Source: an uncultured Gemmatimonadales bacterium | GTDB taxonomy: Bacteria; Gemmatimonadota; Gemmatimonadetes; JACCXV01; JAHWKZ01 | DNA: 64,000 nucleotides | Reading direction: 5' to 3' | Assembly (NCBI GenBank): GCA_947259315.1 | Contig: CAMYLR010000008.1 | Span: forward strand, 31,013-95,012 | Shown: positions 1-12,523 of the stretch, one piece after another | How the letters are laid out: every line of letters starts with the position of its first letter | Numbering within the stretch: position 1 is the stretch's first letter | Notes under the pieces: model-generated | Databases searched by the model: none | Seen by the model: the letters and a program-made list of their open reading frames with translations, nothing else | Told to the model about the DNA's origin: nothing | Made by a program: the position numbers and the translations under genes

Positions 1-732
1 CAGGTCTGCCAGGGCCTCGGCGAGACGCGGTTCCCTTTCCACCGTTGCCCCTCGTACGACAGGCGCGGCTTGATAGGGCGGGAAATAGCTCAGATCGTCA
101 TCGAGAACGACCAAATCCAGACCGGCGATCTGGCCGTCCGTGGAGTTGGCCACCGCGACGTCAATCTGGTCATCGGCCAATGCGCGATACATGAGACCCA
201 AGTCGAGTTGCCGTATTGAGCCAAACTCCAGCCCATACATCTCTCGAAGACCGGGATAGCCATCGGGCCGAGCCATGAACTCGGGGCCGAATCCAGCCAC
301 CAGATCGGCCCCCCGAGGAGCGAGGTCGGCGATCGATGCAAAGCCCTGCGCTTCAGCATCCGCTCGACGAACGACGAGCGCGAAGGTGTTCTCGAACCCT
401 AGTGGGTGTGTCCACTCGAGACCCCACCGTTCTCGATAAACACGGCGCACCGTCTGATACACTCGTTCGGGATCGGTGTCGACCGGGAGCTCAAGCACCG
501 CCGTAAGCGCGGTACCCGTGTATTCCACGTAGACGTCGATTTCACCATTCAACAGGGCGTGGTGGCAAACGAAGGTGCCACCCAGATGGAATCGACGCTC
601 GACCGAGACCCCACGCGCTTCCAACTCCTGAGCCACGATCTCGCCCAAAACGTTTTGCTCGGTGAAGTTCTTCGTGCCTACGACGACCGCATCGCTGGGA
701 GTGCAACCACCGAGCACCATCGTCGCGCACAT
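1..732 (-). CDS. Glycine betaine/choline (QAT-family) ABC transporter substrate-binding lipoprotein, partial; the 3' end runs off the window
   Basis: Manual translation of the minus strand from the ATG at 732 gives MCATMVLGGCTPSDAVVVGTKNFTEQNVLGEIVAQELEARGVSV... The LGGC lipobox and the KNFTEQ/ILGEI motifs are typical of OpuAC/OpuCC-type binding proteins. The frame stays open to position 1. The ORF track omits it because it has no in-window stop. The plus ORF 406..1149 is its shadow. Confidence 0.7.
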   Translation of the reverse strand, partial: MCATMVLGGCTPSDAVVVGTKNFTEQNVLGEIVAQELEARGVSVERRFHLGGTFVCHHALLNGEIDVYVEYTGTALTAVLELPVDTDPERVYQTVRRVYRERWGLEWTHPLGFENTFALVVRRADAEAQGFASIADLAPRGADLVAGFGPEFMARPDGYPGLREMYGLEFGSIRQLDLGLMYRALADDQIDVAVANSTDGQIAGLDLVVLDDDLSYFPPYQAAPVVRGATVEREPRLAEALADL

Positions 733-761
733 CGTGACGAGCGCGCGCCAAACGTGCTCGC

Positions 762-1433
762 TCAACGTTCGCGATCCCTAGTCGCGGCCGGCGTGGCCAG
801 CGTCAGCCTCTTCTCCATCGCGCCGAGCAAACCGTCCGCCAACAACGCCAAGAGCGCGGCTGGCAACGCGCCGGCCAGAATCACTGTGTCGTTGACCATC
901 GCCAGCCCCTGGAAGATGTACACACCAAGCCCACCAGCCCCGATAGCGGCTGCGATAGTAGCGATCCCCACCGACGTGACGGTGGCCACTCTGACACCGG
1001 CCAAGATTATTCCTGCTGAAAGTGGCAACTCGACGCGCATCAAGAGCTGCCGATCGGTCATTCCCATTCCCCGAGCCGCTTCGCGCAAGGCAGGGTCTGT
1101 TCCTCGAATTCCAGCGAACGTGTTGCGGACGATCGGAAGGATCGCGTAAAGGGTGAGCGCTACGATAGCGGTACTCGCACCCACCCCACCAAACAAGGGC
1201 AGTGGAATTAGAAAACCGAACATCGCCAGACTGGGAATCGTCTGGACGACATTGGCAAGCCCCATCACCGGTTTTTCCACGCGACCACTCCGTGTGGCCC
1301 AAACACCAAGCGGTACCCCGATCAAAATCGCCCCGCCGACGGAGATCGCTACGAGCAAAAGGTGTTCCGCCGTCAGATTAGCCATCTCTTGACGATGGTC
1401 GGTGGCGTAACGCCACAGATCAAACATCTCCAC
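762..1433 (-). CDS. Glycine betaine/choline ABC transporter permease (OpuBB/ProW-like)
   Basis: 223 aa multi-TM protein with the ABC permease EAA-like region (REAARGMGMTDRQLLMRVELPLS). It overlaps the upstream ATPase by 14 nt and abuts the SBP gene. Confidence 0.85.
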   Translation of the reverse strand: MEMFDLWRYATDHRQEMANLTAEHLLLVAISVGGAILIGVPLGVWATRSGRVEKPVMGLANVVQTIPSLAMFGFLIPLPLFGGVGASTAIVALTLYAILPIVRNTFAGIRGTDPALREAARGMGMTDRQLLMRVELPLSAGIILAGVRVATVTSVGIATIAAAIGAGGLGVYIFQGLAMVNDTVILAGALPAALLALLADGLLGAMEKRLTLATPAATRDRER

Positions 1434-2190
1434 CGCCTACCCGATCCCCGAAGATCTCGGCCAGCGCGTGGATCTCTGGGTGGTCTGTCTCGAGAAACGT
1501 GTCCGGTGTCTCTAGTGCGCCCAGCGTGCCAGCTGTCAGCAGGCCAATCCGATGTCCAACGCACAGCGCCTCACGCACATCGTGGGTAACGAACAGCGCG
1601 GCCTTGCCGAGCTGCCGCATGAGCGCCTTGAACTCTCGCTGAAGACTGGCTCGAGTGACTGGATCCAAGGCACCGAACGGCTCATCCAGTAACAGCAACG
1701 GCGGGTCAGCCGCCAGGGCTCGAGCGACGCCAACCCGCTGGCGCTCACCTCCGGAGAGCTGGTGGGGTCGGCGTGGTCCGTACGCGTCAGCGGGAAGACC
1801 CACCATGTCCAGCAGCGCTCGCGTGCGCTCCTGAATCCGGTCCGGATCCCATCCCAACAACTCCGGAACCAACCCCACGTTGCTGGCTACCGTCATGTGC
1901 GGAAAGAGGCCGATCTCTTGGATCACATAACCGGTGTTGCGGCGTAGCTCCACCGGATCCCAATCCGAGGTCAAACGACCGCCGACGCGCACGACACCCG
2001 CCGTCGGATCTAGCAGTCGGTTCACCAACTTCAGTACGGTCGTCTTCCCAGCCCCCGACCGACCGACGAGAACGATTGTCTCTCGCTCGTTGACCGTAAG
2101 CGAGAAACGATCGAGAATCGTGTGTCGACTATCGATCGAGTAGGTAACGGCCTCGAATTCGACCGGAATCGAGGTTGCGTGCGTATTCAC
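1420..2190 (-). CDS. ABC transporter ATP-binding protein (OpuCA/ProV-type, no CBS tail)
   Basis: Walker A GRSGAGKTT, signature LSGGERQRV, Walker B LLLLDEPFGALD, H-loop VTHD. GTG start. Confidence 0.85.
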   Translation of the reverse strand: MNTHATSIPVEFEAVTYSIDSRHTILDRFSLTVNERETIVLVGRSGAGKTTVLKLVNRLLDPTAGVVRVGGRLTSDWDPVELRRNTGYVIQEIGLFPHMTVASNVGLVPELLGWDPDRIQERTRALLDMVGLPADAYGPRRPHQLSGGERQRVGVARALAADPPLLLLDEPFGALDPVTRASLQREFKALMRQLGKAALFVTHDVREALCVGHRIGLLTAGTLGALETPDTFLETDHPEIHALAEIFGDRVGGGDV

Positions 2191-2200: not shown

Positions 2201-2214
2201 TAATATAGGGAGCC

Positions 2215-4572
2215 ATGGCGACGGTCACCCAAGCGGTCGAGCTGCTTTTCGCCCGTCCCGGAGCGCCACCGTTCACCACACGACGGGGTGACGGGTGGGT
2301 CGTCCACGTCGACCAAACACCCACGTCCGAAGAAGCCTTCGCCTACAGCGTAGCTCGCGGTCTCTCCGACCATCCGCGATGGCTTCACTGTCGATACCTC
2401 TACGACGAGACCGGCAGTGAGTTGTTCACCAAGATCACCGAGCAACCCGAATACTACCTGACCCAGGCAGAAAACCAGATACTGAAGAAGCAGGCGGATG
2501 AAATCCGCGAGGCGGTGGGTCCGCTACCCCTCATGGAACTTGGTGCTGGTACCGCGGTCAAGACGCAGCAACTTCTCAAGGCGTGGCTCGAGACCGATGG
2601 GGTTGCTGAGTACTTGCCGCTCGATATCGACCCTTCCGTCCTGACCCAGGCGGCCGAGCGACTCACGACCGAGCTACCGGGACTATCCGTCACCGGGCTC
2701 GCAACATCCTACGAGCGCGGGCTCGATCTGTTGGGCAAGCACCAACCGCTCTGTCTGGTCTTTCTGGGTTCGTCGATCGGGAACTTCAATCTCGAACAAA
2801 CAGATATGTTCTTGGCGCGACTTCGAGCGTGCCTCTCGCCCGATGACACATTCCTGCTCGGCGTCGACTTGGTCAAGGATATCCCGCAGTTAGAAGCCGC
2901 TTACAACGACGCCGAGGGCGTGAGCGAGGCTTTTACCCGCAACCTGTTTCATCGGATGAATCGCGAGCTGGAGTCCAACGTCCCGGTCGATGCGATCGAC
3001 CACGTCGCTTTCTGGAACGATCGATTGCAGCGTATCGAGATATACGCCCAATTCCAGGAGGAAGTGCGGGTCGAGCTTCCGTCGATCGACCGAAGGTTTC
3101 GGGTGGCGGCCGGCGAGATGGTCCTCACCGAAATCAGCCGCAAATACCAACTGGCGAAAATCGAGTCCGACTTGGCGCGGTTCGGTTTCCAGTTGGAGAG
3201 AGCGTTCACCGACGATGAGCAACGTTTTGGCTTGCTGCTGTCCCGCCGCATCGCTCCCACCGGCGGACCACCGCCATGGACACCTTTTGCAGCCGGGCTC
3301 CGTGCAGCGCGCAGTCAGACGCTCAGGCTCCTGAGCAGTCTGAGCGACGACCAGCTCAAGCAACAGGTTCTCCCGATCTTGAGCCCGATAGCCTGGGACC
3401 TGGGTCACATAGCCGAGTTTGAGGAGTTGTGGTTGGTCAACGCGATCGATGGGCTAAGCGAGAACGCTGACGTGCACGACCGACTCTCCAAAGATTACGA
3501 TGCGATCGCCACCCCACGTGGAGTTCGTGGGCAGCTCGAGCTCCCGGCAAGCCCCGACATAATGGGTCAGCTAAGAAACGTGCGGCGCGAGGCCCTGAGG
3601 CGCGCCCGCGAGGTAGACCTCGACGTGGACCAACGACTGACGAAGGACGGCTTCGTATACCACATGGTTGTCCAACACGAGCAACAACATCAGGAGACGA
3701 TACTCCAGTCCATCGCGCGGATGGAAAACTTCGTGTACGAGCCAGCTTACGGAGAGAGGCCGCCAAAAACGACCTTGCCACCAGACACCGAGATGGTCGT
3801 TATCCCGTCAGGGTTATTTCCAATGGGCACAGATCGAGAGGCCGATACCTACGACAACGAACGCCCCCCCCACTGGGTGGACGTCGATGGGTTCTGGATC
3901 GATACCGCGCCGGTGACAGCCGGGCAGTTTCTCGAGTTTTTCGACCGCGGGGGTTACCAACGACGTGAATGGTGGTCCGAGGAGGGCTGGGCGTGGCGCA
4001 CAGAGCATGAGATCGAGCGCCCGCTCGGCTGGCGGCGCTCGGAAATCGGCTGGGAGGCGATCGAGTTTGGACGCATCGAGCCCCTCGTTCCCACACGACC
4101 CGTACAGCACATCTCGTGGTACGAGGCATGCGCCTACGCGCGCTCGGTGTCCAAGCGACTGCCAACCGAAGCCGAGTGGGAGAAGGCTGCTGCCTGGGAC
4201 CCCGAAGTGCGGCTTACGCGCCGCTTCCCGTGGGGTGACAGCCCACCTGAGTCACATCACGCCAACCTCGGTGCCGACATCTTTGGTCCCGCCCCCGTCG
4301 GCGCTTTTCCCGCCGGTCGTTCCTTCTTTGGCTGTCACCAAATGCTCGGTGACGTCTGGGAATGGACGGCCAGCGAGATGGAGGCGTACCCTGGCTTTGA
4401 GGCCTACCCGTACCCGGAATACTCCCAAGTGCACTTCGGCCAGGGCCACCGGGTTCTTCGCGGAGGGTCATGGGCCACCGGCCGATCGGTCGCCAGGAAT
4501 ACTTTCCGCAACTGGGATCTCCCCCAGCGGCGCCAAATCTTCGCTGGTTTTCGCTGCGCCCGGGACGCTTGA
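2215..4572 (+). CDS. egtD-egtB: Fused ergothioneine biosynthesis protein: N-terminal histidine N-alpha-methyltransferase (EgtD) plus C-terminal hercynine oxygenase / sulfoxide synthase (EgtB); fungal Egt1-like architecture
   Basis: N-terminal half: YLYDETGSELFTKITEQPEYYLTQAENQIL, LMELGAGTAVKT, LVFLGSSIGNF and LLGVDLVKD match EgtD. C-terminal half: the DinB_2-like IAWDLGHIAEFEELWLV, then the FGE-sulfatase domain with RVLRGGSWAT, FRNW and GFRCARDA, matches EgtB. Confidence 0.85.
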   Translation: MATVTQAVELLFARPGAPPFTTRRGDGWVVHVDQTPTSEEAFAYSVARGLSDHPRWLHCRYLYDETGSELFTKITEQPEYYLTQAENQILKKQADEIREAVGPLPLMELGAGTAVKTQQLLKAWLETDGVAEYLPLDIDPSVLTQAAERLTTELPGLSVTGLATSYERGLDLLGKHQPLCLVFLGSSIGNFNLEQTDMFLARLRACLSPDDTFLLGVDLVKDIPQLEAAYNDAEGVSEAFTRNLFHRMNRELESNVPVDAIDHVAFWNDRLQRIEIYAQFQEEVRVELPSIDRRFRVAAGEMVLTEISRKYQLAKIESDLARFGFQLERAFTDDEQRFGLLLSRRIAPTGGPPPWTPFAAGLRAARSQTLRLLSSLSDDQLKQQVLPILSPIAWDLGHIAEFEELWLVNAIDGLSENADVHDRLSKDYDAIATPRGVRGQLELPASPDIMGQLRNVRREALRRAREVDLDVDQRLTKDGFVYHMVVQHEQQHQETILQSIARMENFVYEPAYGERPPKTTLPPDTEMVVIPSGLFPMGTDREADTYDNERPPHWVDVDGFWIDTAPVTAGQFLEFFDRGGYQRREWWSEEGWAWRTEHEIERPLGWRRSEIGWEAIEFGRIEPLVPTRPVQHISWYEACAYARSVSKRLPTEAEWEKAAAWDPEVRLTRRFPWGDSPPESHHANLGADIFGPAPVGAFPAGRSFFGCHQMLGDVWEWTASEMEAYPGFEAYPYPEYSQVHFGQGHRVLRGGSWATGRSVARNTFRNWDLPQRRQIFAGFRCARDA

Positions 4573-5606
4573 TCGGGCCCGGAGAGCTCGCTAAACGACT
4601 GGCAGGGTTGGCGCTCAACATCGATGAGTGTCGGATCGAGGTCGGCTCGGTTCCGACCGTCGGTTATTACGATGGAGCGCCCCGACCCACCGGCACGATC
4701 TCGTTGATCGGCGGCCATGATGTCGGTCGCGGTGAGAACGTCGATTGGACTCCGGAAGATCAGGCAGCGTTCAGGGACGCCGTGCAAGACAAGGTTCCCA
4801 TCGGATCAACAACGGTCGGCGATCTGACCCAGCGACTGGAAGGCGACCTTGTCGCGCATCACCGAGCGGCGATCGAAGCGGCAGCTATCGACTTGGCGTT
4901 ACGTCAAGCCGGAAGCAACCCTTTTGTTGTGGCTGGTTTGCCGGCGAAACCGGTGACTTTTTGTTGGTCGATTGGTCACGATTTGGCAACCACCGCCGGC
5001 GGACTGTTACAGGCGGTGCGCGCAACTCTGGAAGCCGAACCAGGCGCGCGCTTCAAGCTCGACGTGCCGGCTGAAGGTTGGCCCGAGTCGATGTGGTCGG
5101 AGCTTGCCACGATTGGCCGGGTGCGGACCGTCGATTTCAAACGCCAAGGCTCACCCGGCTCTGTAGCGCTTGCGCATCAGTACTTGCCTGAGGCTTGGCT
5201 GGAAGACCCACCCTTGGAAGCGCTCGAGGACGACAGCGAACAGTCACACGCGTGGGCCGACCGGGTAGCCGTCGATGGTTACGTGACGCGAGTCGCCGAT
5301 TTGGCCGTATTACCCTTTCGACCGACGGCGATCAACGTGAAAGCGCCGCGCATGGGCGGCCCACTCGAGGCCCTTCGCTGTATAGATCTATGTTGTCAAA
5401 GCGGCTGGGCGTGTTACATCGGTGGGATGTTCGAGGTCGGTCCGGGTCGGCTTCAGGCTCGCGTTTTGGCTTCGCTCTTCAGCAGTAGCCAATGGAACGA
5501 CCTCGCGCCGATACGCGTCTGTGATTCGGATCCGTATCCGCCAAGTCCGTTACCGATGTCATCCGGTTTTCGTGGCTTCGGGGAAGCAACCGTTATGGCC
5601 GACTAG
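4569..5606 (+). CDS. Enolase-superfamily protein (mandelate racemase / muconate lactonizing enzyme subgroup, o-succinylbenzoate synthase-like)
   Basis: N-terminal capping-domain signature AAIEAAAIDLALRQAG. Barrel motifs VRTVDFKRQ, WLEDP, INVKAPRMGG and YIGGMFEVGPG. The start is uncertain. The longest ORF begins at ATG 4470 (103 nt overlap with egtDB). TTG 4569 overlaps the egtDB stop as TTGA. TTG 4608 is also possible. Confidence 0.6.
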   Translation: MIGPGELAKRLAGLALNIDECRIEVGSVPTVGYYDGAPRPTGTISLIGGHDVGRGENVDWTPEDQAAFRDAVQDKVPIGSTTVGDLTQRLEGDLVAHHRAAIEAAAIDLALRQAGSNPFVVAGLPAKPVTFCWSIGHDLATTAGGLLQAVRATLEAEPGARFKLDVPAEGWPESMWSELATIGRVRTVDFKRQGSPGSVALAHQYLPEAWLEDPPLEALEDDSEQSHAWADRVAVDGYVTRVADLAVLPFRPTAINVKAPRMGGPLEALRCIDLCCQSGWACYIGGMFEVGPGRLQARVLASLFSSSQWNDLAPIRVCDSDPYPPSPLPMSSGFRGFGEATVMAD

Positions 5607-7546
5607 CTAGTAGTCGCTCCAGGCTGAGGCGCCGCACCCTCGTCCGCTATTCGGCGCGCAAAGTGATCGATCTCCATCGACCCCAGCTCGCCTTCGGCGT
5701 GGGATCGAACGCTCACATGCCCAATTCCCAACTCGCGCTCGCCGACCACGACCATGTAAGGGGTCTTTTGTGTTTCGGCATCTCGGACCTTGTAGCCCAC
5801 GCCCTCTCTGCGGTCATCGACGTGCACCCGGATCGCGTGGCGCTTCAGGTGGGCGGCGACCGTCTCGGCATAATCGTTGAACTGATCGCTGACCGGAATG
5901 ATGCGCACCTGCTCTGGCGCCAACCAGGTTGGGAAGGCGCCCCCATAGTGCTCGATGAGCACGCCGAGGAAACGCTCGATCGATCCCAAGATCGTTCGAT
6001 GGATCACAACCGGTTGCTGCTCGGTTCCATCCGAAGCGGTGTAGTGCAGATCAAACCGCTCGGCCAAGTTGAAATCCAGCTGGACCGTCGCTAGCTGCCA
6101 TTGACGACCGAGCGCATCAGTTGCCTGGAAGTCGATCTTCGGGCCGTAGAACGCCCCTTCGCCAACGCCAATGGTGAAGTCGCGCTCGTTCTCGACCAAC
6201 GCCTGTTCGAGCACCGCCTCGGCGCGATCCCACATCGCCTCTGTACCGATGAACGTATCTGGGCGAGTCGACAGCTCGATCGCGATCTCGAAACCGAACA
6301 CGTCGCCGAGCACGAACTCTATGAGCCCGAGCAACGACGTTACCTCAGCTTGTATCTGATCAGGCGTACAGAAGATATGCGCATCGTCTTGAACGAAGGT
6401 ACGCACTCGCAGGAGACCGCTGATGACGCCCGATTTCTCGTATCGATGTAGTCGACCGAAGTCGGCATATCGGATCGGTAGGTCACGATACGATCGCTTT
6501 CGGCTCGCGTACACGAACGTCGATGCCGGACAGTTCATCGGCTTTACCGCCAGCTCGCGATCGTCCGCCGCCGTGAAGTACATGTGCTCACGGTAGTTGT
6601 CGTAGTGCCCCGAGCGGTGCCAGAGCTCGACGTCGTAGATCTGAGGCGTGACGATCTCCTCGTGCGGCCATTCGGTTTCGAACAGCTCGCGCATAAAGCT
6701 CTGCAAGCGATTGTAGATCCAGGCGCCCTTGGGGTGAAAGTATGGGCTGGCTGGCGCGTTGGAATGGAACGAGAAAAGGTCCAGCTCGCGCCCAAGCCGC
6801 CGATGATCGCGGGCTTTGGCCTCCTCGATCCGCTCCAGGTGTTGCTGCAACTCGGCTTTGTCGAAGAAAGCTGTCCCATAGATGCGGGTCAGCATCTTGT
6901 TTCGCTCGTCGCCACGCCAATAAGCTCCTGCAGTGGACAACAGCCGGAACGTCCCCAGCCTTCCAGTAGCCGGCACATGCGGGCCGCGACAGAGATCCAC
7001 CCACTCCCCCTGACGGTACAGCGTCAGCGTCTCACCCGCGGGCAGGTCCTCGATGATCTCGATCTTGTAGGGCTCATCCAGCTCGCGAAACAAGGCCAAT
7101 GCTTCATCCCGGGACACGACTTCGCGCTCAATACCCAGGTCCTCCTTGACGATCTTGGCCATCTCGGCCTCGATCGCCTCGAAGTCTTCAGGCGTGAACG
7201 GCGTGTCGCGGTCGAAATCGTAGTAGAACCCGTCAGCTATGACGGGACCGATCGTGACTTTGACTTCGGGCCACAGCCGCTGCACCGCCTGCGCCATGAG
7301 ATGCGCCGTGGAGTGTCGGAATATGTCCAGCGCTTCGGGATCACGGCGGGTCAAGATCCGGAGCTTAGAATCACCCTCCAGCGGTCTACCCAGGTCGTAC
7401 GGCTGCCCGTCCACCTCGGCGGCCAACGCCGCCCGAGCTAAACCGGCACCGATTCGACTAGCGACGTCGAGCGGAGTCGAACCGGCAGCTACCTCGAGCG
7501 TGGCCCCGTCCGGCAGAGCCACCGTTGTGGTCTTGTTATTGGTCAT
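5603..7546 (-). CDS. thrS: Threonine--tRNA ligase
   Basis: 647 aa. N-terminal TGS domain, HSTAHLMAQA, class II aaRS core and a C-terminal anticodon-binding domain. Confidence 0.95.
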   Translation of the reverse strand: MTNNKTTTVALPDGATLEVAAGSTPLDVASRIGAGLARAALAAEVDGQPYDLGRPLEGDSKLRILTRRDPEALDIFRHSTAHLMAQAVQRLWPEVKVTIGPVIADGFYYDFDRDTPFTPEDFEAIEAEMAKIVKEDLGIEREVVSRDEALALFRELDEPYKIEIIEDLPAGETLTLYRQGEWVDLCRGPHVPATGRLGTFRLLSTAGAYWRGDERNKMLTRIYGTAFFDKAELQQHLERIEEAKARDHRRLGRELDLFSFHSNAPASPYFHPKGAWIYNRLQSFMRELFETEWPHEEIVTPQIYDVELWHRSGHYDNYREHMYFTAADDRELAVKPMNCPASTFVYASRKRSYRDLPIRYADFGRLHRYEKSGVISGLLRVRTFVQDDAHIFCTPDQIQAEVTSLLGLIEFVLGDVFGFEIAIELSTRPDTFIGTEAMWDRAEAVLEQALVENERDFTIGVGEGAFYGPKIDFQATDALGRQWQLATVQLDFNLAERFDLHYTASDGTEQQPVVIHRTILGSIERFLGVLIEHYGGAFPTWLAPEQVRIIPVSDQFNDYAETVAAHLKRHAIRVHVDDRREGVGYKVRDAETQKTPYMVVVGERELGIGHVSVRSHAEGELGSMEIDHFARRIADEGAAPQPGATTS

Positions 7547-7628: not shown

Positions 7629-8000
7629 CTAGGTCACGGTTGCGGGTCCAAGCCAGCCCCAGCGCTCGAGATCAACGCTGCCGTCGGCATCGAACTCGAC
7701 ACCTTCCCGCTCCAGCAGCGCGCGTTGAAGCTCCGGTGGGATTCCGACTTTGCCGATCGAGATCTCCCCGCGCACGTTGATCACCCGCTGCCACGGAACG
7801 TCGGCGTCCTCCGGAAGCGCGTGTAGCGCCCACCCCACCGTCCTTGCCGCTCTGGGCTTGCCGCACAACGCGGCTATGTGACCGTAGGTCGCCACTCTCC
7901 CCGGCGGAATCCGGCGAACCATCGCGTAAACATCATCGTAGAACGAGGACCCAGATCGCTTGGCTCCGCCGTGGTCACGTGCCGAAACTGCGCGTCCCAT
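7629..8000 (-). CDS. atl: Alkyltransferase-like protein (Atl; MGMT DNA-binding domain with Trp in place of the acceptor Cys)
   Basis: YGHIAALCG and VPWQRVINVRGEIS, compared with the MGMT motif PCHRV. The PWxRV form is the ATL hallmark. Start-stop overlap with the upstream dehydrogenase. Confidence 0.7.
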   Translation of the reverse strand: MGRAVSARDHGGAKRSGSSFYDDVYAMVRRIPPGRVATYGHIAALCGKPRAARTVGWALHALPEDADVPWQRVINVRGEISIGKVGIPPELQRALLEREGVEFDADGSVDLERWGWLGPATVT

Positions 8001-9191: not shown

Positions 9192-9267
9192 TGGTGGAGC
9201 TGATCGGAATCGAACCGACGACCTCCTGAGTGCGATTCAGGCGCTCTCCCAGCTGAGCTACAGCCCC
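9192..9267 (-). tRNA. tRNA-Ala (anticodon CGC)
   Basis: The reverse complement GGGGCTGTAGCTCAGCTGGGAGAGCGCCTGAATCGCACTCAGGAGGTCGTCGGTTCGATTCCGATCAGCTCCACCA folds as a cloverleaf. It has the G3:U70 Ala identity pair, the anticodon loop AUCGCAC, and an encoded CCA. Confidence 0.85.
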
Positions 9268-9321: not shown

Positions 9322-10359
9322 CTAGCCGGTCAGTAAACCCTCACCAACTTCGGTCCACTGCTTCAGGTAATACTCCATCGTCTCCCGAAGGGTGTCCCGC
9401 AGATTGTACTCCGGTTCCCAGCCTAGCGAGCGGATCTTCGTGATGTCGGGGACTAATCGATCCGAGTCCTCGTAGCCTTCGCCGTAGAACTCTTCGCCAT
9501 CCACATCAACGACGTCACTGCGCGACGTCTCACCTGTAAGCTCCTCGTACAACTCGATCATCAGGCTCGCTAGATCGCGAATCGTGATGTTGTTGTCTGG
9601 ATTGCCGACGTTGAAGATCTGGTTGCGGGTCGCGCTCGGGTTATCGAGAATCGTTTGGAACGCGCGGTTGGCATCCCAAACATGCAGGAACGATCGATGC
9701 GCGTCACCTCCGTCAACCAGCTGTATGCGCCCACCGGTCAGGAGAGCCGACATGAAATGGGCAAAGACCCTTGGCCCACCCTGGCTGTTGGCGGGCACCA
9801 GGTAGTCGATCCGACTCCCACAGAAGTTGAACGGCCGGATTATGGTGTATTCGATATTTCCGGCGGTCCCGTGCCCGTGGATGACCCTCTCAAGCAACAC
9901 TTTCGATGTGGCGTAAATCCACCGCTGTTTGTCCACTGGCCCAAAGACGCTGTCAGACTCGTCCTCGTAGTAGCGCTCCCCCTCTGTCAGCTTCCCGTAG
10001 ACCTCAGCTGAAGAGTATTGAACGAGCTTCACGCCTTCGTTCTCCAGGCACATCCGAAGGACTTTCATGTTCTGATAGAAATTGAGATCAAAAACCTCTA
10101 GGGGTGTCGTGTTGTACAGACTGGGGTTCGCGTAAGCGACCAGATCCACGACCAGATCTGCGTCACCGATAAGCCCTCGTACGGGCTCATCATCTTGGCG
10201 TACGTCCATTTCATGAAAAATGAAATTCTCGCCCTCGATTCCAGCCAACTTCTCGTGGGTGATGTCGACACCAACGACGTCGTGCTCCCCCATCGAAATC
10301 AGGTGCTCAACCATGTGGGAGCCGATGAACCCCCCGGCTCCTAGAATCAGTATTTTCAA
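9322..10359 (-). CDS. NAD-dependent epimerase/dehydratase; UDP-glucuronic acid decarboxylase (ArnA C-terminal domain / UXS-like)
   Basis: MKILILGAGGFIGSH, YxxxK (YATSKVLLER), and a strong resemblance to the ArnA decarboxylase domain. GC is visibly lower than in its neighbours. Confidence 0.8.
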   Translation of the reverse strand: MKILILGAGGFIGSHMVEHLISMGEHDVVGVDITHEKLAGIEGENFIFHEMDVRQDDEPVRGLIGDADLVVDLVAYANPSLYNTTPLEVFDLNFYQNMKVLRMCLENEGVKLVQYSSAEVYGKLTEGERYYEDESDSVFGPVDKQRWIYATSKVLLERVIHGHGTAGNIEYTIIRPFNFCGSRIDYLVPANSQGGPRVFAHFMSALLTGGRIQLVDGGDAHRSFLHVWDANRAFQTILDNPSATRNQIFNVGNPDNNITIRDLASLMIELYEELTGETSRSDVVDVDGEEFYGEGYEDSDRLVPDITKIRSLGWEPEYNLRDTLRETMEYYLKQWTEVGEGLLTG

Positions 10360-10459
10360 TTGATTGCTCCCTTCACAGCCTGCGTTGTATTCGAGATTGC
10401 CCAGCGGATACCCACAATCTGCACTCTCACCCCGTCTTCAGGTAGACCTCTAGTAGGTG

Positions 10460-10924
10460 TCAATGATGGTAGGGCTCACCGCGCACGATCGTCCAAGCGC
10501 GATAGAGCTGCTCAACCAGCACGACCTGTGCCAACTCGTGAGCGAGGGTCTGCGGTCCCAGCGCGATTCTGCGGTCGGCGGCCGCAGTCACCGCTGGCGA
10601 CAGCCCATCCGCCCCACCAACCACAAAAACCGCGCGCCCGATCCCATCCGCGCGCCACTCGTCGAGCAGATTCGCCCAACCCTCCGAGGCCAGCGACTCG
10701 GCCTGCGGTGTAAGCGCCACCAACCGGTCGCGCGGTCCGATCGCAGCGGTCTTGAGAAGGCGTTGGCCTTCCTCGTCCAGCGCCTCCGCACCGGCTTTCT
10801 TTGAAGGCTTGACGTGCTTCCACTGGACTCGACAGTAACGCTCGACTCGAGCCAAGTAATCGGCAACCCCGGATCGCGCCCAATCGCTCCTGAGCTTGTC
10901 GACGGCGATGATTTCGATTTCCAC
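10460..10924 (-). CDS. rlmH: 23S rRNA (pseudouridine1915-N3)-methyltransferase RlmH (SPOUT)
   Basis: IIAVDKLRSDWARSGVADYLARV ... VFVVGGADGLSP ... LVEQLYRAWTIVRGEPYHH aligns along its whole length to RlmH. Confidence 0.9.
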   Translation of the reverse strand: MEIEIIAVDKLRSDWARSGVADYLARVERYCRVQWKHVKPSKKAGAEALDEEGQRLLKTAAIGPRDRLVALTPQAESLASEGWANLLDEWRADGIGRAVFVVGGADGLSPAVTAAADRRIALGPQTLAHELAQVVLVEQLYRAWTIVRGEPYHH

Positions 10925-10930
10925 GTACTC

Positions 10931-12523
10931 TTAGCCGACCGGGGATTCGACCTCTCGAACCAGTACCGTATCGCGCTGCTGGGCGGGATCGGTCTCGGGG
11001 TAGGTGAGCGTATGATGGAGGCCACGACTCTCATGACGCCGGCGCGCCGATTCCACGATCAGCTGGGCAACCTGGAACAAGTTCACCGTCTCTCCCATTT
11101 CCGGGACCGCAGAAAAGCTCGGTACACGACGTCCTAGTTCCTCCAGCTGACCCGCGGCTCGTGCCAACCCGTCGTCATCCCTGACGATACCGGCCCCATC
11201 CCACAAGATCTTGCCGATCTCCGTCCGTAACTCAACCGCCGAGTTCTCGACCGGTGGCGTCGGTGCCATGATCGGTGGCTCTTCCGCACCCGGGCTACGC
11301 TCAGCCAGTAGATCCTGGGTTACCTCGGCCGCCCGCTCACCGAATACGACCGCCTCCAAGAGAGAATTCGATGCCAGCCGGTTGGCGCCGTGCACCCCTG
11401 TGCACGCCACCTCACCCACGGCGAGAAGAGCATGAATTGCGGTACGCCCCCAATGATCGGTCTGAATCCCCCCACACAAGTAATGCGCGGCTGGAACGAC
11501 CGGGAGCATATCCTCCGGCGGGTCGAACCCTCGCTCCCGACAGGTAGCGAGGATGTTCGGGAATCGTTCCTCGAACCGCTCGCGCGAGATCGGGCTGCAA
11601 TCCAGCCAAACATGGCTCGCCCCGGTGTTGCGCATCTCGGCGTCGATGGCTCGTGCCACCTCGTCTCTGGGCGCCAACTCGGCCGTGCCGTGATTTTGCA
11701 TGAACGGCTGCCGGTCGAGATTGCGTAGGATCGCCCCCTCGCCTCGAACCGTCTCGCTGATCAGAAACGGCCTTCCCTCAACGGGATACAGCCCTGTCGG
11801 GTGAAACTGGATGAACTCCATGTTGGCGATCGCCGCGCCAGCTCGATACGCCATTGCAATGCCGTCGCCGGTGGCGATCGATGGGTTGGTCGTAAAGCGA
11901 TACGCCTGACCGCACCCACCGGTGGCCACATAGGTCACACGGGCGTGGACAGCCACTAACTCCCCTCCGTGGCGATCGACGACCACCGCGCCCGCGCAGC
12001 GCGGGCCGCGGTCCGACTCCACCACCCACAGGTCGAGGGCGAAATAGTGCTCGTGAATCCGTACACCTGCACGGTCTGCGGCATCGAGAAGCCCGGCCTC
12101 AATCGCTCGCCCGGTGAGATCATCTGCGCGCACGATTCGTCGCGCTGAGTGGCCACCTTCCCGAGCTAGCGAAAGCTCTTTTGGATCGTCCGTCGAGTAG
12201 CTAAAGCGAACTCCGTAGTCTATGAGCTCGCGTACTCTCGCAGGGCCTTCCTCGACCAGAAGGCGCACCGCATCCACGTCGCACAAGCCGTCACCGGCCT
12301 GCAACGTATCAGCGATGTGCGCATCAAATGAGTCGGTCGGGTCCATGACCGCAGCGATGCCCCCCTGCGCGTAGTTCGTGTTCGCCTCGGAGTCTTCCTT
12401 CTTCGTGATTACCGTTACAGTCCCGTACGCCGCGGCTTTGATGGCATACGAAAGACCGGCGATGCCGCTACCGAGAACCAGAACGTCAGTCTCCACAACT
12501 CGGTCCGTCGCGCGAGTGCTCAT
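10931..12523 (-). CDS. nadB: L-aspartate oxidase
   Basis: FAD-binding DVLVLGSGIAGL, a fumarate reductase/succinate dehydrogenase flavoprotein fold, HPTGL and RGEGA. Confidence 0.9.
   Translation of the reverse strand: MSTRATDRVVETDVLVLGSGIAGLSYAIKAAAYGTVTVITKKEDSEANTNYAQGGIAAVMDPTDSFDAHIADTLQAGDGLCDVDAVRLLVEEGPARVRELIDYGVRFSYSTDDPKELSLAREGGHSARRIVRADDLTGRAIEAGLLDAADRAGVRIHEHYFALDLWVVESDRGPRCAGAVVVDRHGGELVAVHARVTYVATGGCGQAYRFTTNPSIATGDGIAMAYRAGAAIANMEFIQFHPTGLYPVEGRPFLISETVRGEGAILRNLDRQPFMQNHGTAELAPRDEVARAIDAEMRNTGASHVWLDCSPISRERFEERFPNILATCRERGFDPPEDMLPVVPAAHYLCGGIQTDHWGRTAIHALLAVGEVACTGVHGANRLASNSLLEAVVFGERAAEVTQDLLAERSPGAEEPPIMAPTPPVENSAVELRTEIGKILWDGAGIVRDDDGLARAAGQLEELGRRVPSFSAVPEMGETVNLFQVAQLIVESARRRHESRGLHHTLTYPETDPAQQRDTVLVREVESPVG

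Follow-up and report, generated by a model that had tools for sequence, protein, structure and literature searches.

An EgtD-EgtB fusion of type I character and its overlapping DUF8230 partner gene in an uncultured Gemmatimonadota bacterium point to a possible alternative completion of the ergothioneine pathway

The antioxidant ergothioneine has been studied widely and is a target of commercial fermentation. The sulfoxide synthases that introduce its sulfur differ in the donor that they use, which is gamma-glutamylcysteine (gamma-Glu-Cys) in type I EgtB and cysteine in type II EgtB and in Egt1, and bacteria that possess only egtB and egtD are also able to make ergothioneine. In the structures of type I EgtB, D416 hydrogen-bonds the glutamyl part of gamma-Glu-Cys and R90, D48, and S43 contact its cysteinyl part. 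The pair R87/D416 is a marker of thiol binding, and in SenA a His replaces R87 and a Phe or Tyr replaces D416. The gamma-Glu-Cys route additionally requires EgtC. In the present work, we describe a locus from an uncultured Gemmatimonadales bacterium (contig CAMYLR010000008.1 of assembly GCA_947259315.1, positions 31,013 to 95,012; this stretch of 64,000 nucleotides (nt) is referred to below as the window) in which a single open reading frame (ORF) encodes both EgtD and EgtB and is followed by an overlapping gene of the Pfam family DUF8230. The explanation that best accounts for this locus as a whole, to which we assign a probability of roughly 0.6, is that of a fusion enzyme that would take gamma-Glu-Cys as its thiol donor and that has the DUF8230 protein as its operon partner, for which a role as a C-S lyase is proposed.

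The ORF is predicted to be a genuine bifunctional enzyme of this uncultured Gemmatimonadota bacterium. It begins with ATG and extends over 785 codons in an unbroken frame with zero internal stops. The initial annotation of this DNA had proposed that one polypeptide carries a genuine EgtD and a genuine EgtB, and our analyses support this: the scores of 304.2 bits with the NCBIfam model for egtD (TIGR03438; cut-off 290.9) and of 380.3 bits with that for egtB (TIGR03440; cut-off 360) both pass the equivalog cut-offs, and the iron ligands H398, H488, and H492 as well as the catalytic Tyr733 are in place. The scores with the NCBIfam models for SenA (331.5 bits; cut-off 420) and for the OvoA N-terminal region (132.3 bits; cut-off 400) fall below their cut-offs. 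The hidden Markov models of Methyltransf_33, DinB_2, and FGE-sulfatase all matched the fusion, the first of them over 301 of its 304 profile positions, and the positions of these domains (Table 1) confirm the order of methyltransferase followed by oxygenase that had been likened to fungal Egt1. The sequence motifs on which that annotation had relied are all present, except that the one given as LELGAGTAVKT is off by one letter and reads MELGAGTAVKT. The EgtD half aligns from end to end with EgtD of M. smegmatis (4uy5; 209 bits) and keeps the equivalents of Y39, F47, Y56, G161, N166, Y206, E282, and S284, with T213 changed to Ser and M252 changed to Ile; we take Y39, F47, Y56, N166, Y206, E282, and S284 to be the histidine-binding residues of the M. 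smegmatis enzyme. An AlphaFold2 (AF2) model of the whole fusion, built from a 13-sequence alignment (pLDDT 65.9, pTM 0.46), is too poor for the packing of the domains to be read from it.

Table 1. Features of the locus and of related loci, with residues of the DUF8230 active site mapped to Amycolatopsis NSAR
Feature	Position	Strand	Details
OpuAC-type quaternary-amine binding protein	1..777	-	Homologue in L001 carries PF04069; 3' part lies beyond window start, start codon near 765
ABC transporter permease (BPD_transp_1 type)	762..1433	-	Homologue in L001 carries PF00528
ABC transporter ATPase (ProV-like), divergent from fusion	1420..2190	-	Pfam ABC_tran
Shine-Dalgarno-like GGGAG	2207..2211	+	4 nt 5' of ATG at 2215; read from sequence
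egtD-egtB fusion gene, predicted hercynine synthase and type I-like sulfoxide synthase	2215..4572	+	785 aa; both NCBIfam equivalogs passed
EgtD domain (Methyltransf_33), residues 44-344	2344..3246	+	Pfam E=2.1e-95
DinB_2 domain of EgtB, residues 362-496	3298..3702	+	Pfam E=8.3e-15; H398, H488, H492, R435/R438
FGE-sulfatase domain of EgtB, residues 525-783	3787..4563	+	Pfam E=3.9e-63; Y733, Y736, N766, W767, D768, R772
TTGA overlap, TTG start of DUF8230 gene on TGA stop of fusion	4569..4572	+	cTTGA
DUF8230 gene, enolase-superfamily (MLE subgroup-like) enzyme, proposed pathway partner	4569..5606	+	345 aa
DUF8230 metal ligands	D188, E211, D235		NSAR D189, E214, D239; invariant
DUF8230 catalytic Lys, strand 6	K257		NSAR K263; invariant
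DUF8230 first Lys of KxK	K162		NSAR K161
DUF8230 Asp at site of second catalytic Lys of NSAR	D164		NSAR K163; invariant
DUF8230 Lys at site not catalytic in NSAR	K190		NSAR N191; invariant
Stand-alone DUF8230, L161, L162, L163, and L164 (each)	10001-11050
Stand-alone DUF8230, L165	2841-3902
Linked transporter, L001	7637-9934
Linked transporter, L028	11377-13438
Linked transporter, L056	3265-5912

The EgtB half of the fusion finds its best solved relative in the type I enzyme of M. thermoresistibile (4x8b), with which it scores 334-335 bits. The corresponding scores are 164-167 bits with the structures of the type II EgtB from Chloracidobacterium (6qki, 6o6l, 8qf6), about 170-179 bits with OvsA, about 135-137 bits with SenA, and about 123-129 bits with EgtB-IV. 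In the alignment to 4x8b, the iron ligands H398, H488, and H492 correspond to H51, H134, and H138, the catalytic Y733 corresponds to Y377, and the substrate residues R435, R438, Q491, Y736, N766, W767, D768, and R772 correspond to R87, R90, Q137, Y380, N414, W415, D416, and R420, respectively. These residues are strongly conserved: H51, H134, H138, R87, R90, Q137, and R420 (type I numbering) are kept in all 56 of the fusions compared, Y377 and Y380 in 55, and N414, W415, and D416 in 54. The same residue signature is carried by the unfused type I-like EgtBs of a metagenome sample; five other EgtB-like clades in that sample all have F or Y at position 416 and E, A, or I at position 420, and some have F or L at position 377. 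Because both the bit scores and the residues that contact gamma-Glu-Cys match type I, the fusion is read as a type I enzyme. A type II identity of the C-terminal half was rejected on the basis of its lower score (164-167 vs. 334 bits) and the type I residues, and an identity as SenA or OvoA was rejected because the scores lie under the cut-offs and both R87 and D416 are retained. From the conserved contact residues, the thiol donor of the fusion is probably gamma-glutamylcysteine and not cysteine. The idea that the type I EgtBs of cyanobacteria use cysteine proved to be wrong, as the cyanobacterial case involves an OvoA-like enzyme.

The gene that lies directly downstream of the fusion, which accompanies this fusion family almost without exception, was overlooked in the initial annotation. 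By comparison of related genomes, the fusion opens a conserved operon of two genes, of which the second, overlapping one encodes the DUF8230 protein. The overlap of start and stop codons suggests that the translation of the two genes is coupled, and the junction is likewise abutting or overlapping (GTGA, TTGA, or ATGA) in most related loci. A scan of 185,579 species genomes, seeded with DUF8230 and carried out with two peptide patterns, identified 64 convincing loci in at least four phyla (viz. Gemmatimonadota, Candidatus Binatia, Myxococcota/'Deltaproteobacteria', Thermodesulfobacteriota, and others). A single ORF for EgtD and EgtB is located immediately upstream on the same strand in 55 of these 64 loci; in 6 others the contig ends within egtB, and in 1 there is no upstream DNA. 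The two loci that lack an Egt gene both contain disrupted copies of DUF8230, one with an in-frame stop (L061, 1613-2719) and one with a frameshift (L066, 3495-4507); as intact close relatives of L061 exist, its stop may be a sequencing error. The 13 generic enolase-superfamily loci that were recovered by the same scan contain no Egt genes.

An independent scan of metagenomes, seeded with the fusion, identified 73 loci with an unfused egtB (61 of them with at least 900 nt of downstream sequence), and DUF8230 was found in none of the 73. In the same scan, DUF8230 is present beside the D-then-B fusions for which downstream DNA is available (L082, L146, and the truncated L134). Clustering of the genes in the fusion neighbourhood revealed no other universal gene family, and none of egtA, egtC, and egtE is conserved across 35 related loci. 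The earlier statement that no egtA, egtC, or egtE is adjacent holds for the window: the immediate neighbours and 30 ORFs at 7.8-57 kb, in a scan that left out a few small ORFs and the ORFs of the fab region, are without matches to GCS2, GATase_4, and Aminotran_5. Taken together, it is likely that the fusion-linked DUF8230 subfamily functions in the same pathway as the fusion. Two other genes were considered as candidates for pathway functions and rejected: an upstream class-V aminotransferase in L003, regarded as a possible EgtE, is AGXT/BhcA-like and occurs in 3 loci only, and a GGACT-like gene near thrS in L001 has as its counterpart in the window the ORF at 7629-8000, which encodes an unrelated MGMT-type DNA-binding protein.

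The precomputed Pfam annotation of homologues of the DUF8230 protein consists of DUF8230_N and DUF8230_C (PF26684/PF26685), and the score of the protein with MR_MLE_C (19.0 bits) is under the gathering threshold of 29.4. Sequence and profile searches of the PDB retrieved the N-acylamino-acid racemase/NSAR/OSBS enzymes (1wue, 8e-23; 1sja, 2e-19) and dipeptide epimerases. The AF2 model of the protein (pLDDT 93.6, pTM 0.93) consists of a capping domain and a modified TIM barrel, and its Foldseek matches are NSAR, OSBS, AEE, and MLE at E-values of 1e-12 to 1e-16 and TM-scores of 0.6-0.74. The active site was mapped by profile alignment to the Amycolatopsis NSAR 1sja (Table 1). The KxK motif of strand 2 is absent from DUF8230, which has K162-x-D164 with an invariant Asp at the second position. 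Judged from sequence and model, the DUF8230 protein is an MLE-subgroup-like enzyme with an intact metal site and one of the two canonical bases. Since the equivalent of K163 is an invariant Asp, a two-base racemase is disfavoured, and a one-base elimination is compatible with this active site. In the literature searched, we found no mention of DUF8230 and no link of ergothioneine to the enolase superfamily. Some longer DUF8230 hits (P0488, P0516, and P0505) that resembled natural fusions were rejected as artefacts of gene calling.

The pathway that we propose would require two polypeptides and would be independent of pyridoxal phosphate (PLP), leading from histidine and gamma-Glu-Cys to ergothioneine. 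The EgtD module would convert L-histidine and S-adenosylmethionine (SAM) into hercynine, and the type I-like EgtB module, with its non-haem iron, would use O2 to couple hercynine and the thiol at C2 of the imidazole. The expected product, gamma-glutamyl-hercynylcysteine sulfoxide, has an acylated amino group and a free alpha-carboxylate, and the lyase role is proposed because this product would fall in the substrate class (N-acylated amino acids) of the nearest relatives of DUF8230. In DUF8230, a carboxylate-bound divalent metal and the single Lys base K257 would take the alpha-proton of the N-acylated cysteine moiety, after which hercynyl sulfenate (ergothioneine sulfenic acid) would be released by beta-elimination and reduced to ergothioneine, and the co-product gamma-glutamyl-dehydroalanine would be hydrolysed to glutamine and pyruvate. 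Beta-elimination is a hallmark reaction of the enolase superfamily, and an active site in which one of the two bases of a racemase has been lost is more in keeping with elimination than with racemisation. EgtC and EgtE would both be dispensable under this model, which fits their absence from the cluster. The replacement of both EgtC and EgtE by DUF8230 as a metal-dependent C-S lyase is a tentative proposal, and the more specific claim that DUF8230 might be the first C-S lyase of thiohistidine biosynthesis to depend on a metal and not on PLP, acting directly on gamma-glutamyl-hercynylcysteine sulfoxide, is a speculative one that we hold to be somewhat unlikely.

The fusion alone adds little to present knowledge, as fusions of this sort are already known in broad outline and receive automatic annotation. 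What is new is a compact module that combines the type I D-B fusion with DUF8230 and a betaine-type importer. In the present analysis, it occurs exclusively in uncultured metagenome-assembled genomes (MAGs) from at least four phyla, and it points to an undescribed way of completing the ergothioneine pathway. If DUF8230 is indeed a lyase, it would represent a new reaction class for both the enolase superfamily and thiohistidine biosynthesis, a function would be assigned to a Pfam DUF, and a two-gene cassette for bioproduction would become available, with the fusion and DUF8230 as the sole polypeptides needed to convert histidine, SAM, O2, and gamma-Glu-Cys into ergothioneine.

A number of observations weigh against this interpretation. 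The conserved contacts to gamma-Glu-Cys point to the choice of donor without proving it, the two peptide patterns of the locus scan were tuned to the fusion-linked DUF8230 subfamily and bias its outcome accordingly, and all of the known carriers of the fusion-DUF8230 operon are MAGs. A dedicated lyase is not strictly required, in that many bacteria with only egtB and egtD apparently use unlinked generic PLP lyases, and egtC and egtE could sit elsewhere in the genome, outside the 64 kb examined. With respect to the chemistry, the L-specific base of NSAR is K163, which is the residue that is lost in DUF8230, and abstraction of the alpha-proton of L-Cys by DUF8230 would need either another binding mode or the invariant K190.

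The occurrence of DUF8230 away from the fusion weighs in the same direction. A search with a divergent actinobacterial copy revealed a large and intact DUF8230 subfamily in Solirubrobacteraceae/Actinomycetota, whose members stand alone in all five of the contexts sampled (Table 1), in which neither an Egt nor an OpuAC gene occurs within 10 kb. The fusion-linked and stand-alone subfamilies are 31% identical and have 46 conserved positions in common, including all of the polar active-site residues; by this comparison they probably share their chemistry and perhaps their substrate, and the chemistry of DUF8230 is thus not intrinsically tied to the fusion. The idea that DUF8230 is exclusive to the fusion is falsified at the level of the family by the stand-alone actinobacterial subfamily and is kept for the fusion-linked subfamily only; confidence in a pathway-exclusive function is lowered accordingly, and the operon evidence for the linked subfamily stands. 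If the lyase role is correct, the stand-alone actinobacterial proteins would serve unlinked egtB and egtD genes. The family as a whole is small, comprising about 195 clusters (50% identity) at E<=1e-30. In all five stand-alone contexts, a gene of 52-63 aa is called immediately downstream on the opposite strand.

Of the other explanations for the locus, the one that survives best retains DUF8230 in the pathway and gives it a different reaction, viz. a 1,1-proton transfer on hercynine, ergothioneine, or a gamma-glutamyl intermediate, or a tailoring step that leads to another product, with C-S cleavage carried out by unlinked enzymes. The nearest structural relatives of DUF8230 are racemases and epimerases, a betaine-type ABC importer is located at the same locus, and a stand-alone subfamily exists whose identical active site hints at a substrate beyond this operon, all of which speak for such a role. 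The betaine epimerase HpbD is reportedly found in a similar genome context with a betaine importer, and the reaction class envisaged here would resemble that of HpbD and the dipeptide epimerases. However, K163, one of the two lysines of NSAR that enable two-base racemisation, is replaced in DUF8230 by an invariant Asp, no physiological role is evident for D-betaine or for an epimerised intermediate, and the strict pairing of DUF8230 with the D-B fusion, and not with unfused egtB and egtD, is left unexplained. Hence, we consider this explanation to be unlikely, if still a serious one.

The model put forward in the initial annotation, viz. a cysteine-dependent, Egt1-like (type II/III) synthase that is complemented by a distant generic PLP C-S lyase, with the enolase-family gene being unrelated, is improbable. 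It draws on the Egt1-like order of the domains, the lack of egtA, egtC, and egtE in the window, the known production of ergothioneine by bacteria with only egtB and egtD, and the fact that DUF8230 is also found alone in Actinobacteria. However, the alignments with the M. thermoresistibile and Chloracidobacterium EgtBs point to type I and not to type II: with the former, the EgtB half reaches double the score that it has with the latter (334 vs. 164-167 bits), and it possesses R87, R90, D416, and R420. Moreover, R87, D416, and R420 are kept in 54-56 of the 56 fusions, whereas the other clades differ at positions 416 and 420, and in the tree described below the unfused type I enzymes are the sister group of the fusions. 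An unrelated enolase-family gene would also have to be reconciled with a DUF8230 gene that overlaps the stop codon of the fusion and that follows it in 55 of 64 loci across phyla and in none of the 73 unfused ones.

The distribution of the fusion was examined by a search of 5.8 billion protein clusters, which yielded 391 matches at E<=1e-20. The best 120 of these, which were examined, all contain the same three domains, are 695-858 aa in length and 48-100% identical to the query, and are derived mostly from Gemmatimonadota MAGs and in some cases from Binatia. The names that homologue clusters have received automatically are EgtB, 'iron(II)-dependent oxidoreductase', or EgtD, and the members of the exactly matching cluster are named 'MAG: ergothioneine biosynthesis protein EgtB [Gemmatimonadota bacterium]'. 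The rarity of the fusion that had been implied earlier is thus overstated, as it is widespread in Gemmatimonadota, Binatia, and Myxococcota-type MAGs, where it is annotated automatically as EgtB. In a neighbour-joining tree of EgtB halves, which is without bootstrap and indicative only, the sampled D-then-B fusions of every phylum form a single clade that is sister to an unfused type I group including the M. thermoresistibile enzyme. The gene order in the unfused relatives is mostly reversed, with egtB followed by egtD. The linker between the invariant F338 and L362 is 23-32 aa long in the 56 fusions from genome loci, and an origin by assembly error is disfavoured because this linker is short and of constant length. 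An assembly or frameshift artefact that joined two genes into the single ORF, for which one might cite the indels in MAG assemblies of relatives (frameshifts in L038, L060, and L065; a deletion in L008), can be dismissed, as the frame is unbroken, at least 120 protein clusters and 55 independent genome loci from different studies show the same architecture, and a simple read-through of egtB into egtD, the order of the unfused relatives, cannot yield a D-then-B protein.

Some individual loci deviate from the common arrangement. The frameshifts of L038, L060, and L065, all long-read MAG assemblies, lie in egtB or DUF8230 and are likely indel errors, so that single-locus gene models in MAGs of this kind call for caution. 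In the Gemmatimonadota MAG M8-58_Bin_324 (L008, 4469-7663), EgtD, EgtB, and DUF8230 are in one frame, but EgtB lacks its final 26 residues and with them the N414-R420 motif. This read-through is probably due to an assembly deletion or a pseudogene, and it was rejected as a Rosetta-stone triple fusion because the essential C-terminus of EgtB is missing. An independent fusion with EgtB at the N-terminus and EgtD at the C-terminus is found in the actinobacterial-looking metagenome contig Ga0055471_10001160 (L113, 633-2891; 73% GC). The C-terminal residues of the type I signature, the sites that were covered in this comparison, are present in its EgtB, and there is no DUF8230 in the 1 kb downstream.

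A betaine-type ABC transporter is encoded divergently from the fusion (Table 1). Its ATPase scores 238 bits with the NCBIfam proV subfamily model, which is under the cut-off. In about 42 of 57 loci the transporter accompanies the fusion, and the permease is conserved in 43 loci. Three arrangements are observed, in which the transporter is divergent and upstream (Gemmatimonadota), co-directional and following DUF8230 (Binatia-type), or co-directional and upstream (Myxococcota-type); in the Myxococcota-type loci, the binding domain and the permease are in one ORF. The persistence of this linkage through rearrangement suggests a functional tie between the transporter and the fusion. The nearest solved structures of the binding protein are OpuBC, OpuCC, ProX, and EgtUC, and EgtUC is the top solved match of the Myxococcota-type binding protein. 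The solute-binding domain of EgtU has been placed in subcluster F-III, with Phe293 (the 'Y-to-F switch') as the determinant of its specificity for ergothioneine. The binding proteins from Gemmatimonadota and Myxococcota have a Tyr in place of this Phe293 (YPEYTGT / YPDYTGT), and an EgtU-type specificity for ergothioneine is not supported for the linked transporter in view of this Tyr. Candidate ligands of the OpuAC protein are hercynine, ergothioneine, and an ordinary osmolyte.

Several further features of the region may be noted. The ATPase ORF and the start of the fusion are only 25 nt apart (2190-2215), which implies either that both promoters lie within coding sequence or that one of the annotated starts is too far upstream. 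Scans for promoters and terminators gave matches at the level expected by chance, and this also applies to the single sigma-70-like match at 2090-2118. Rfam, applied at the gathering threshold to the 64 kb window, revealed no riboswitch or other RNA beyond one tRNA gene (9195-9267, - strand). The 3' ends of the DUF8230 gene and of the convergent thrS (5603-7546, - strand) have 4 nt in common (5603-5606), with no recognisable terminator between them. In some Gemmatimonadota, two genes resembling flavin-dependent (FAD) amine oxidases and one resembling a GCV_T aminomethyltransferase are present between DUF8230 and thrS (L001, 13390-17755, - strand), and this set resembles systems for N-methyl (betaine or sarcosine-type) demethylation. 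The window lacks this set, and thrS is next after DUF8230 there.

In comparison to known systems, the two modules of the fusion are orthologue-grade counterparts of mycobacterial EgtD and type I EgtB (M. smegmatis / M. thermoresistibile), with identical iron triad, catalytic Tyr, and contacts to hercynine and gamma-Glu-Cys. The mycobacterial egtABCDE cluster encodes separate enzymes, whereas here a single D-then-B polypeptide forms a clade of its own in the neighbour-joining tree, and in place of egtA, egtC, and egtE it is accompanied by an enolase-superfamily gene and by the genes of a betaine-type ABC transporter. Egt1 of fungi (N. crassa / S. pombe, type III) shares with the fusion a single chain in which a SAM methyltransferase is followed by DinB_2 and FGE-sulfatase. 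However, cysteine is the donor of Egt1, after which the PLP lyase Egt2 acts, whereas the fusion keeps the type I signature for gamma-Glu-Cys. This signature argues against a placement of the fusion within the fungal Egt1 clade, and its affinity to bacterial type I enzymes suggests that it arose independently of Egt1, which was compared by domain order and description only. The type II EgtBs (Chloracidobacterium thermophilum 6qki; Methylobacterium) share the fold and the overall reaction and occur in minimal egtB and egtD systems, but they use cysteine, and the EgtB half of the fusion scores 164-167 bits with type II vs. 334 bits with type I.

The binding protein of the linked transporter belongs to the same OpuAC clade of quaternary-amine binders as those of the ergothioneine importer EgtUV and the OpuC/ProX osmoprotectant importers, with the carboxylate-binding Glu and Arg conserved; where EgtU has Phe293, it has Tyr, as do ProX and OpuC, and in the Gemmatimonadota version, unlike in EgtU, it is encoded by a separate gene. 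Lastly, DUF8230 shares with NSAR/OSBS and the dipeptide epimerases the same two-domain fold and conserves D189/E214/D239, K161, K263, and the GGM-x-E motif. The NSAR/OSBS relatives act on N-acylated amino acids, a class to which the expected EgtB product would also belong. DUF8230 differs from NSAR in the change of K163 to an invariant Asp and of N191 to an invariant Lys, and it constitutes a separate Pfam family, whose genomic context here is ergothioneine biosynthesis, as opposed to menaquinone or peptidoglycan recycling.

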